Source: Methanospirillum sp. (GTDB lineage Archaea > Halobacteriota > Methanomicrobia > Methanomicrobiales > Methanospirillaceae). From it: a DNA stretch of 24,000 nucleotides. Below are positions 13,028 to 13,798 of the stretch, in pieces. The position numbers and the translations under genes were made by a program. Every line of letters begins with the position of its first letter. The first letter of the stretch is position 1. The DNA lies in the NCBI GenBank assembly GCA_035561295.1, contig DATMXW010000029.1:12669-36668 (forward strand). Direction: 5' to 3'. The notes under the pieces are model-generated. The model had not been told where the DNA came from. It made no database searches and saw nothing but the letters and a program-made list of their open reading frames with translations.

Positions 13028-13798
13028 ATGTTCTGGAATGGAAAAGGAGTAACACTCCTTGTTGTGGGTCTGCTTTTGGCAGTAGTCGGCATGCTGCCAG
13101 TGTATGCAGAGAATGCTACTGAAAATGCCACGGTATCCAGTGAGGAAGGGGCACCTGAGATGGGTGTGGCCGTATTTAAATACAGTCCGGTCGGAATCTC
13201 AATGACCCAGGCTGATGGGGTGACGTCATCCATCAGTGAATTTGCAGGTCATACTCTTATTGCTTTCACGACAGACACCAATAAGACAGCATTATCTGTT
13301 GATGTCCTGGCAACAAACCTGACTCTTGAAGAGATTAACGCTGATATCTTGACCAAAATGGAGTCCAAAAAAGACTTTAAATTGATATCAGAAGAGGAGA
13401 CAACCCTGGGCGGTGTACCTGCACATAAGGACGTCTTTACCTATTCACCCTTTGAGGGGGTTTCCAAAGAAGTCACTCAGATCGCAGCAGTAAACAATGG
13501 AAACCAGTATGTGATCCAGACTGAGGCTATTGACGGAGACAAATCAGCACAAGAACTTGGTGTCCCGATGATTGAGTCGTTCCAGTTCATCGCGATAGCT
13601 GATGATAATATCTCCAAAATGGTGAAGAGCAAGTTTAAGAAATCTGCCAAGCCAAGCAAGGGATATAGCATCTACTCCTACCCTACCTACTCCACTGAAC
13701 TTGACTGGAGCTGGTATGAAGGGTACCACTGGGACTATGTCGAAGAATGGTGTACCTGCATGGTAGAGACCATTGACTACTACTGCTGGTGCTGGTAA
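13028..13798 (+). CDS. secreted protein (256 aa) with a Lys-rich linker and a W/Y/C-rich acidic C-terminal tail; function unknown
   Basis: Signal peptide MFWNGKGVTLLVVGLLLAVVGMLPVYA|ENATENAT. The globular mid-region (...TLGGVPAHKDVFTYSPFEGVSKEVTQIAAVNNGNQYVIQTEA...) is reminiscent of PsbP/DcrB/DUF1795-type folds, but this is weak. Linker KMVKSKFKKSAKPSK at nt 13616-13660. The tail GYSIYSYPTYSTELDWSWYEGYHWDYVEEWCTCMVETIDYYCWCW lies at 13661-13795. A TATA-like catatata sits about 30 nt upstream. Confidence 0.75.
   Translation: MFWNGKGVTLLVVGLLLAVVGMLPVYAENATENATVSSEEGAPEMGVAVFKYSPVGISMTQADGVTSSISEFAGHTLIAFTTDTNKTALSVDVLATNLTLEEINADILTKMESKKDFKLISEEETTLGGVPAHKDVFTYSPFEGVSKEVTQIAAVNNGNQYVIQTEAIDGDKSAQELGVPMIESFQFIAIADDNISKMVKSKFKKSAKPSKGYSIYSYPTYSTELDWSWYEGYHWDYVEEWCTCMVETIDYYCWCW

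Follow-up and report, generated by a model that had tools for sequence, protein, structure and literature searches.

A rare PsbP-fold protein family of the Methanospirillum lineage with a conserved Lys-rich segment, an aromatic tail and a neighbouring C11 peptidase gene

In a 24,000-nucleotide stretch of DNA from Methanospirillum sp. (assembly GCA_035561295.1, contig DATMXW010000029.1, positions 12,669-36,668 of the forward strand; hereafter the window), a gene at 13028..13798 encodes a 256-residue protein composed of a predicted signal peptide, a PsbP-fold domain, a Lys-rich segment and an aromatic tail. The product corresponds to the NCBI entry "hypothetical protein VN372_01915" of Methanospirillum sp. 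(100% match), and window coordinates refer to the plus strand unless the minus strand is stated. Its relatives share this anatomy, and the next gene downstream encodes, at nearly all family loci with readable DNA, an orthologue of one clostripain-family (C11) peptidase, here called C11a. The reading that we prefer, tentatively and with somewhat less than even confidence, is that this rare Methanospirillum-lineage family serves as a dedicated partner, most likely a substrate, of extracellular C11a.

According to this proposal, the amphipathic Lys-rich segment, which ends in P-x-K, would be the element recognised by C11a, and the enzyme would probably cut after the invariant K211. The aromatic low-complexity tail would act as a sticky tether or docking element whose properties are set by composition, keeping the PsbP domain attached to the envelope, or to a partner, for example the secreted tetratricopeptide repeat (TPR) protein encoded alongside, until it is cut; it would not be a bioactive or thiol-active peptide. 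The likeliest role is a rather ordinary one, that of a tether or a substrate.

Archaeal peptidases of the C11 (clostripain-like) type occur widely in sediments and digesters, but to our knowledge none of them has a known natural substrate or partner protein. The conserved gene pair, together with the candidate P-x-K site, provides a concrete substrate candidate for an archaeal C11 enzyme. If the proposal holds, the aromatic tail would also tether or dock a surface protein of an archaeon with no need of a membrane anchor, which bears on how proteins are placed among the many layers of the Methanospirillum envelope. Should the tail be merely a sticky low-complexity end, the gain is a modest improvement of annotation for a very small family.

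Anatomy and conservation of the family

About ten relatives were found among 15 billion proteins, and all members follow a common plan of predicted signal peptide, PsbP-fold domain, 21-residue Lys-rich segment and aromatic-rich tail. A word-index search of 5.8 billion clusters, which is blind to the tail alone (the query itself is not recovered from so short and biased a segment), returned only two relatives, 71% and 43% identical and both ending in YYCWCW. An HMMER search of 1.84 billion representatives yielded 130 matches, among which only P0002 and P0004-P0008 align past the domain into the segment or tail; the remaining matches cover about residues 40-190 only, often as tandem repeats within larger secreted proteins. 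Three more members are P0133, P0146 and the protein encoded in loci L138/L139. A JGI scan built on the motif of the Lys-rich segment gave three loci, and a scan with narrower patterns gave no relative. When genome contigs were scanned with a degenerate DNA pattern for YYCWCW followed by a stop codon, the matches listed, at least 120 in number, were all chance occurrences in short out-of-frame open reading frames (ORFs). The GC content of the family loci ranges from 33% to 48%. The flanking genes that L126 and the window have in common are 55-65% identical in amino-acid sequence, so that L126 comes from a fairly close relative.

The N-terminus carries a probable Sec signal peptide (residues 1-27, 13028..13108) that ends in VYA before E28. 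In the AlphaFold2 (AF2) model, residues 6-20 form a hydrophobic helix; G21, V25 and A27 are invariant in the eight aligned members, and V-x-A precedes E28 throughout the family. From the helix and the invariant V-x-A, the protein is predicted to be secreted and its signal peptide removed at this site.

Residues 48-190 (13169..13597) are modelled with a predicted local distance difference test score (pLDDT) above 88 when a 45-sequence alignment is used, and this is the model considered here; a 3-sequence alignment gave a pLDDT of 33. In a Foldseek comparison, the best PDB match of these residues is PsbP 4rth (E 4.4e-8, target TM-score 0.6-0.67), and the 34 PDB matches at E<=1e-3 are headed by PsbP, CyanoP, LpqN and DcrB. 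Apa, EagT6, Tsi3 and TplEi are further relatives in fold; protein-binding adaptors, chaperones and immunity proteins (EagT6, Tsi3 and TplEi, for instance) are among the PsbP-fold relatives. The window protein itself scores 18 bits on the Pfam model PsbP_2 (PF18933), below the cut-off of 27, whereas P0004 scores 30.6 on that model and P0008 reaches 26.5 on PsbP (PF01789, cut-off 23.5). The AF2 model and Foldseek together place residues 48-190 in the alpha-beta-alpha sandwich of PsbP/Mog1 type, and the modelled N-terminal domain belongs, at the level of fold, to the PsbP-like superfamily.

The domain is followed by the Lys-rich segment (residues 191-211, 13598..13660), ADDNISKMVKSKFKKSAKPSK, which stands out by invariance, identity and substitution pattern. 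Its family motif is [ED]D-x-[IV]-SKM-[IV]-x-[ST]-K-[MF]-x(6)-P-x-K, and 7 of the 21 invariant columns of the family (D193, S196, K197, M198, K202, P209 and K211) fall within its 21 residues. The invariant P-x-K (P209-S-K211, 13652..13660) lies at the tail boundary, with K211 as the last residue ahead of the aromatic tail, and is a candidate recognition site or cleavage site with Lys at P1. Mean pairwise identity in the family is 60% in the segment, 41% in the PsbP domain and 29% in the tail, rising to 51% in the last six residues. In a comparison with the L001 homologue (71% identical), the proportions of nonsynonymous and synonymous differences (pN/pS) are 0.058/0.82 in the segment, 0.094/0.61 in the tail and 0.19/0.77 in the folded domain, and the codon tables show many third-position changes beneath unchanged residues. 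The low pN relative to pS, together with these synonymous changes, indicates that the tail is translated and under purifying selection. The segment is not part of the fold, its pLDDT being low (47-60 in the AF2 model); it is amphipathic, with a hydrophobic moment of 0.38-0.54 at 100 degrees. An earlier note on this DNA had described a Lys-rich linker here. The richness in Lys was borne out, but a loose linker is not what the alignment reveals, since this is the best-conserved region of the protein.

Bases 13616-13798 encode K197-W256 and the stop codon, that is, KMVKSKFKKSAKPSK (7 Lys in 15 residues) followed by the tail GYSIYSYPTYSTELDWSWYEGYHWDYVEEWCTCMVETIDYYCWCW. The 45-residue acidic tail (residues 212-256, 13661..13795; pLDDT 37-52) contains, just as the earlier note had counted, 6 Trp, 9 Tyr, 4 Cys, 8 acidic residues and no Lys or Arg; it also has 6 aliphatic residues and a C-terminal Trp. 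Against the composition of the window's other 15 long ORFs (6,004 residues; Trp 1.6%, Tyr 3.8%, Cys 0.9%), the binomial probability of at least 15 Trp plus Tyr in 45 residues is 7.6e-9, and that of at least 19 Trp, Tyr and Cys is 7.5e-12; the richest 45-residue stretch in those ORFs holds 9 Trp plus Tyr. The YYCWCW end is the sole occurrence of C[WYF]C[WYF] in the six frames of the window. It is coded by (TAC)2(TGCTGG)2 (13778..13795), a small tandem DNA repeat, and its conservation is at the protein level, since homologues exchange TAT for TAC and TGC for TGT in these codons.

Across the family, the tail keeps its composition and the pattern of its end, while its sequence is poorly conserved and its length varies from 36 to 175 residues. 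In a close subgroup of seven members defined by a Y[YF]CWCW end, six have YYCWCW and the seventh YFCWCW, and 11 tail positions are invariant. Other tails end in NYYSFSWV (P0005), GFFPFGW (P0007), DWGWGWWY (P0008) and YIYHYSND (P0006), and most close in an alternation of aromatic and small residues. Trp, Tyr and Phe make up 25-44% of the tail in the seven short-tailed members from the representatives search and 33% of the last 36 residues of P0005. The P0005 tail (L125, gene 354-1523) has 175 residues, about 140 of which are Asn/Ser/Gly repeats of the N-S-G-N-x-V type placed between a P-D-K boundary and the aromatic end, and the P0008 tail contains a run of seven Thr; judged by sequence, both look like stalk-plus-anchor designs. 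The P0005 repeats also give a weak match, far below cut-off, to a hexapeptide-repeat acetyltransferase model (E 2.6e-4). Among the 130 PsbP-like matches, aromatic-rich C-termini are confined to the family plus P0090, which barely reaches the cut-off (9), and none was found on the other ORFs of the related loci.

When isolated, the segment and tails have no match in Pfam (E<=10), NCBIfam (E<=1) or PDB sequences (E<=10). An Rfam search likewise gave no match. The possibility that the tail is the decayed first hairpin of a second PsbP repeat was considered and rejected: hidden Markov model alignments to tandem-repeat relatives reach the tail weakly, and hhalign of the tail against the domain profile gave P 0.03 and a probability of 1.7%.

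The tail cysteines bear directly on the explanation advanced in the earlier note, in which cleavage would free an aromatic, thiol-rich peptide that serves in signalling, in amyloid assembly or in the chemistry of metals or thiols. Several features fit such a peptide: all members of the close subgroup share the Y[YF]CWCW end and eleven invariant tail positions, the CxC…CxC arrangement could, as read from the sequence, form a two-disulfide hairpin, and a conserved boundary Lys adjoins the gene of a peptidase of Lys/Arg type. However, the tails of P0005 and P0007 contain no Cys, that of P0008 has a single one, and in P0003/P0146, which lack the internal CxC, the number is halved. Thiol or metal chemistry is therefore unlikely as a core function, and the cysteines are, on the sequences compared, a trait of one subgroup only. 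A defined signalling peptide is also hard to reconcile with tails that diverge so strongly in sequence and length. In addition, no gene for a modifying enzyme, exporter, receptor or immunity protein was recognised in Pfam scans of 16 window ORFs, and the habitat is strongly reducing. We consider a released active peptide very improbable. What endures of the earlier interpretation is the conserved Lys-rich segment, the C11 gene next door and the lack of a CTERM signal; the thiol or metal chemistry and the signalling peptide do not.

Pairing with C11a and the candidate cleavage site

The C11a gene of the window (13836..15824; Pfam PF03415, E 1.6e-44) lies directly downstream of the 256-residue protein gene, and a scan found no terminator-like site between the two. 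Its ORF opens at TTG 13836, and the ATG run at 13869 is the likelier start. It is followed by the paralogue C11b (15827..17755; E 3.8e-47), about 33% identical to C11a and 49% to the second C11 protein of L126. A third C11 gene, of C11b type (20714..22657; E 1.4e-40), is separated from the second by an opposite-strand TPR gene and an Hjc/DUF234-like gene. All three products score above the PF03415 cut-off. Three C11 genes had been placed directly downstream of the tail; two do stand there in tandem, but the third is farther off.

Two orthogroups can be distinguished among these peptidases. C11a proteins are 53-69% identical to each other and about 30% to the C11b group, and the window's C11a is 53-55% identical to the C11 proteins encoded directly downstream of P0003 and P0007. 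The second and third C11 genes of the window belong to the C11b orthogroup, within which identity is 45%. In C11a, the loop that follows the catalytic His is longer by an insertion of six residues. The C11 paralogues share a C-terminal domain of about 230 residues with a conserved Cys in (M/L)PCG and a second Cys near the C-terminus.

The pairing was counted over six independent loci with readable downstream DNA, the remaining contigs ending too early. A C11a-type gene lies 37-110 nucleotides downstream in the window, in L003/L141 (P0003/P0146), in L126/L127 (P0007), in L136/L137 (P0133) and in L138, so that the next gene is a C11a orthologue in five of the six loci; wherever a C11 gene follows, it belongs to the C11a orthogroup. 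To the question of whether the family always neighbours C11 genes, the answer is yes for these five loci, but P0008 has none within 2.2 kb downstream.

The catalytic residues of the C11 proteins are preserved. WDHGSAW and FDAC of C11a align with the catalytic regions of solved C11 enzymes, and (D/N)HG and DAC, with an Asp two residues ahead of the Cys, are kept in all six aligned C11 proteins. The DAC of the window proteins corresponds to Asp177/Cys179 of PmC11, an enzyme that accepts Arg or Lys at P1 and whose S1 residue has been proposed to be this Asp, two positions ahead of the catalytic Cys (PMC4850288); the archaeal C11 enzyme globupain self-cleaves after Lys (PMC10104074). It is reasonable to infer, from these aligned residues, Lys/Arg specificity for the window enzymes as well. 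Because C11 enzymes with such an S1 Asp cleave after Lys or Arg, a cut by C11a after the invariant K211 would be the expected outcome if the family is a substrate.

The same gene pair could instead reflect control of the peptidase, with the family acting as a dedicated inhibitor or chaperone of C11a: the PsbP domain would bind the enzyme, and the Lys-rich segment would fill its acidic S1 cleft as a pseudo-substrate, keeping it silent until it reaches its site of action. The fold neighbours of the domain include the immunity proteins Tsi3 and TplEi and the chaperone EagT6, the pair is tightly conserved with the family gene upstream of the peptidase, and a chagasin-family inhibitor encoded near the C11 genes of L126 points to cysteine-peptidase control as a theme at that locus. 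However, no likeness in sequence or fold to known clan CD inhibitors was found, the aromatic tail is left without a role, and C11 enzymes are already self-inhibited zymogens (PMC4850288). We regard this arrangement as improbable.

TPR proteins, the envelope and other neighbours

Secreted TPR proteins adjoin every family locus. In the window, one of them (17777..19516, minus strand) is predicted to be secreted, with a lipobox-like LAGC followed by the conserved motif PSKGLFSGAIL. The window's TPR genes lie at 7324-7989, 8513-9562, 17777-19516 and about 22960-23600, and three of their products have signal-peptide-like N-termini. One TPR orthogroup carries a (P/K)(S/G)KGLFSG motif just past the signal peptide, as in GCGPSKGLFSGAIL, ASKSKGLFSGDIL, AEKSKGLFSGDIF and ADKGKGLFSGEIL. 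Its genes are window 17777-19516 (minus strand), L001 1302-3065 (minus strand), L003 151-1611 and 4745-6337, L126 8715-10247 and L141 148-1608, and the other window TPR genes lack a KGLFSG-type motif. The PSKG within this motif also occurs at the boundary between segment and tail of the 256-residue protein, which could represent a common Lys-Gly site or a coincidence.

A distant relative, P0036 (L130-L135, gene 10001-11500), joins, over 499 residues, a signal peptide and a PsbP-like domain to an acidic, Tyr-rich stretch with 13 aromatics in 36 residues, followed by a Thr/Pro/Gln linker and TPR repeats. Its gene adjoins another TPR gene, and the 10 kb to each side of it contain no C11 gene. This fusion may be a hint that PsbP-like domains act together with TPR proteins.

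These neighbours bear on an explanation without proteolysis, in which the protein is a permanent anchor. The Lys-rich segment would then be a helix binding a TPR protein, the S-layer or the sheath, the tail would be a small element for binding or assembly, with an aromatic face, by which the PsbP domain is fixed in the envelope, and the C11 genes would just share an envelope function. Such an arrangement would suit an amphipathic segment in which both polar and apolar residues are invariant, the stalk-like inserts of P0005 and P0008, the TPR proteins that flank every locus, and the P0008 locus, which retains its TPR neighbours without a nearby C11 gene. The Methanospirillum envelope, moreover, would offer plausible docking targets for the tail: that of M. 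hungatei contains two periplasm-like spaces as well as an amyloid-like sheath in which aromatic residues cluster and disulfides have been proposed (PMC11641113; PMC10593813). What a permanent anchor leaves unexplained is an invariant Lys exactly at the tail boundary and one C11 orthologue directly downstream across members that are only 35-45% identical. We judge it rather unlikely, although it deserves serious consideration.

Several observations weigh against the family being a C11a substrate held by a sticky tail. P0008 has no C11 gene within 2.2 kb downstream; a TPR gene lies upstream, and a PKD gene and then a TPR gene lie downstream. No site resembling the Lys-rich segment is evident in the activation loop of C11a. 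TPR genes are very common, with four in the 24-kb window, so their proximity is weak evidence for a partner. The low pLDDT of the tail supports neither disorder nor a small aromatic fold, and the strongly acidic character of the window tail speaks against plain insertion into a lipid membrane. Finally, the family is tiny, and a taxonomic label is attached to one member only (P0001).

Other genes of the region are recorded here as separate observations. The gene immediately upstream (11416-12795) encodes a two-repeat homologue of TMEM175-like potassium channels (Pfam E 5.4e-20); it was discarded as a conserved neighbour, the TMEM175-like gene having no counterpart in L003 or L126. Farther upstream, a block at 9753-11355 comprises a small MazE-like gene, a gene (9977-11047) for a CdhD-like membrane protein whose N-terminus is rich in Cys, and a 2x[4Fe-4S] ferredoxin-like ORF (the C-terminal part of 10672-11355). 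This block is syntenic with L126 at 55-65% amino-acid identity; there it is separated from the gene for the PsbP-tail protein by a P-type cation ATPase gene. The chagasin-family protein of L126 (14141-14767, minus strand; Inhibitor_I42, secreted) is encoded a few kb from the C11a/TPR/C11b cluster of the P0007 locus; none was seen in the window.

Comparison with known systems

Within the PsbP superfamily, the closest parallels are the PsbP, PsbP_2, DcrB (Pfam PF08786) and LpqN proteins of Mog1/PsbP fold. Like LpqN and DcrB, the window protein is predicted to be an extracytoplasmic envelope protein. The solved structures and Pfam families that it matches cover neither the Lys-rich segment nor the tail.

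GPI8 is a family C13 peptidase that processes the eukaryotic glycosylphosphatidylinositol (GPI) signal. The family resembles this system, and the type IX C-terminal domain handled by PorU (C25), in being an exported protein whose C-terminal module is set off by a conserved site and whose gene is linked to that of a clan CD cysteine peptidase. Much as GPI signals do, the tail keeps its composition but not its sequence. This likeness underlies a further explanation, a clan CD transpeptidase sorting signal, in which C11a would remove the tail after K211 and join the new C-terminus to an envelope acceptor in the manner of PorU. A conserved motif followed by a variable hydrophobic or aromatic C-terminus beside a clan CD peptidase gene would fit, PorU is a C25 cysteine proteinase with a sortase-like mechanism (PMC4560394), and C11 and C25 belong to one clan (PMC4357240). 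However, the type IX domain is a folded unit of about 80 residues borne by many cargo proteins, whereas among the 1.84 billion representatives the module here is found on one protein family only, with neither segment nor tail on unrelated proteins and no tail-only matches. GPI and PGF-CTERM signals possess a hydrophobic membrane-spanning stretch, which this tail lacks along with any match to a CTERM model, and no genes of an acceptor pathway were recognised nearby in Pfam scans. The chances of such a sorting signal seem slim to us, and transpeptidation by C11a, proposed by analogy, is pure conjecture. A broader version, in which C11a would be a dedicated C-terminal processing enzyme, an archaeal clan CD counterpart of PorU and GPI8, is also doubtful at best. 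[ED]DxISKM…PxK and the aromatic tail would then form a new type of non-membrane C-terminal signal, and a cut after Lys would free the PsbP domain from its tether on the amyloid-like sheath or a TPR partner, or transfer it covalently to an envelope acceptor.

PGF-CTERM and its relatives resemble the tail in their C-terminal position after a linker on secreted archaeal surface proteins, and the Methanospirillum S-layer protein uses PGF-CTERM (PMC11641113). The tail lacks the features that make up archaeosortase and exosortase signals, namely a signature motif, a transmembrane helix and a basic cluster at the end. Its dissimilarity to known CTERM sorting signals, already suspected in the earlier note, agrees with the absence of NCBIfam matches for seven members and for the isolated tail (E<=1).

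Precursors of ribosomally synthesized and post-translationally modified peptides (RiPPs) offer another parallel, in that a conserved recognition segment (60% identity here) precedes a variable C-terminal part (29%) and a protease gene is adjacent. The present protein differs in its predicted Sec signal peptide, its folded domain of 140 residues and, in one member, a tail of 175 residues. RiPP-modifying enzymes (radical S-adenosylmethionine, YcaO, lanthipeptide and P450 types) were absent from the Pfam scans of the 16 window ORFs.

Small hairpins stabilised by aromatic residues or disulfides include tryptophan zippers, protegrin-type CxC…CxC peptides and the fungal CBM1 module, which ends in …NPYYSQCL. 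The tail is similar in that its alternating aromatic and small residues would place the aromatics on one face of a strand, and the window tail has W-x-W…W-x-Y around an E-G turn and a CxC-x9-CxC spacing. The endings INYYCWCW and VNYYSFSWV recall the C-terminus of CBM1, although no sequence relationship was detected (Pfam E up to 10, PDB). Unlike the protegrin/tachyplesin type, in which four Cys accompany a cationic character, the window tail is anionic and its first CxC is not conserved, being absent in P0003/P0146; the tail also differs from hairpin modules in having no confident predicted fold in the AF2 model. Taken against all of these systems, the protein is a PsbP-like envelope protein with a previously undescribed C-terminal module and a conserved C11 partner.

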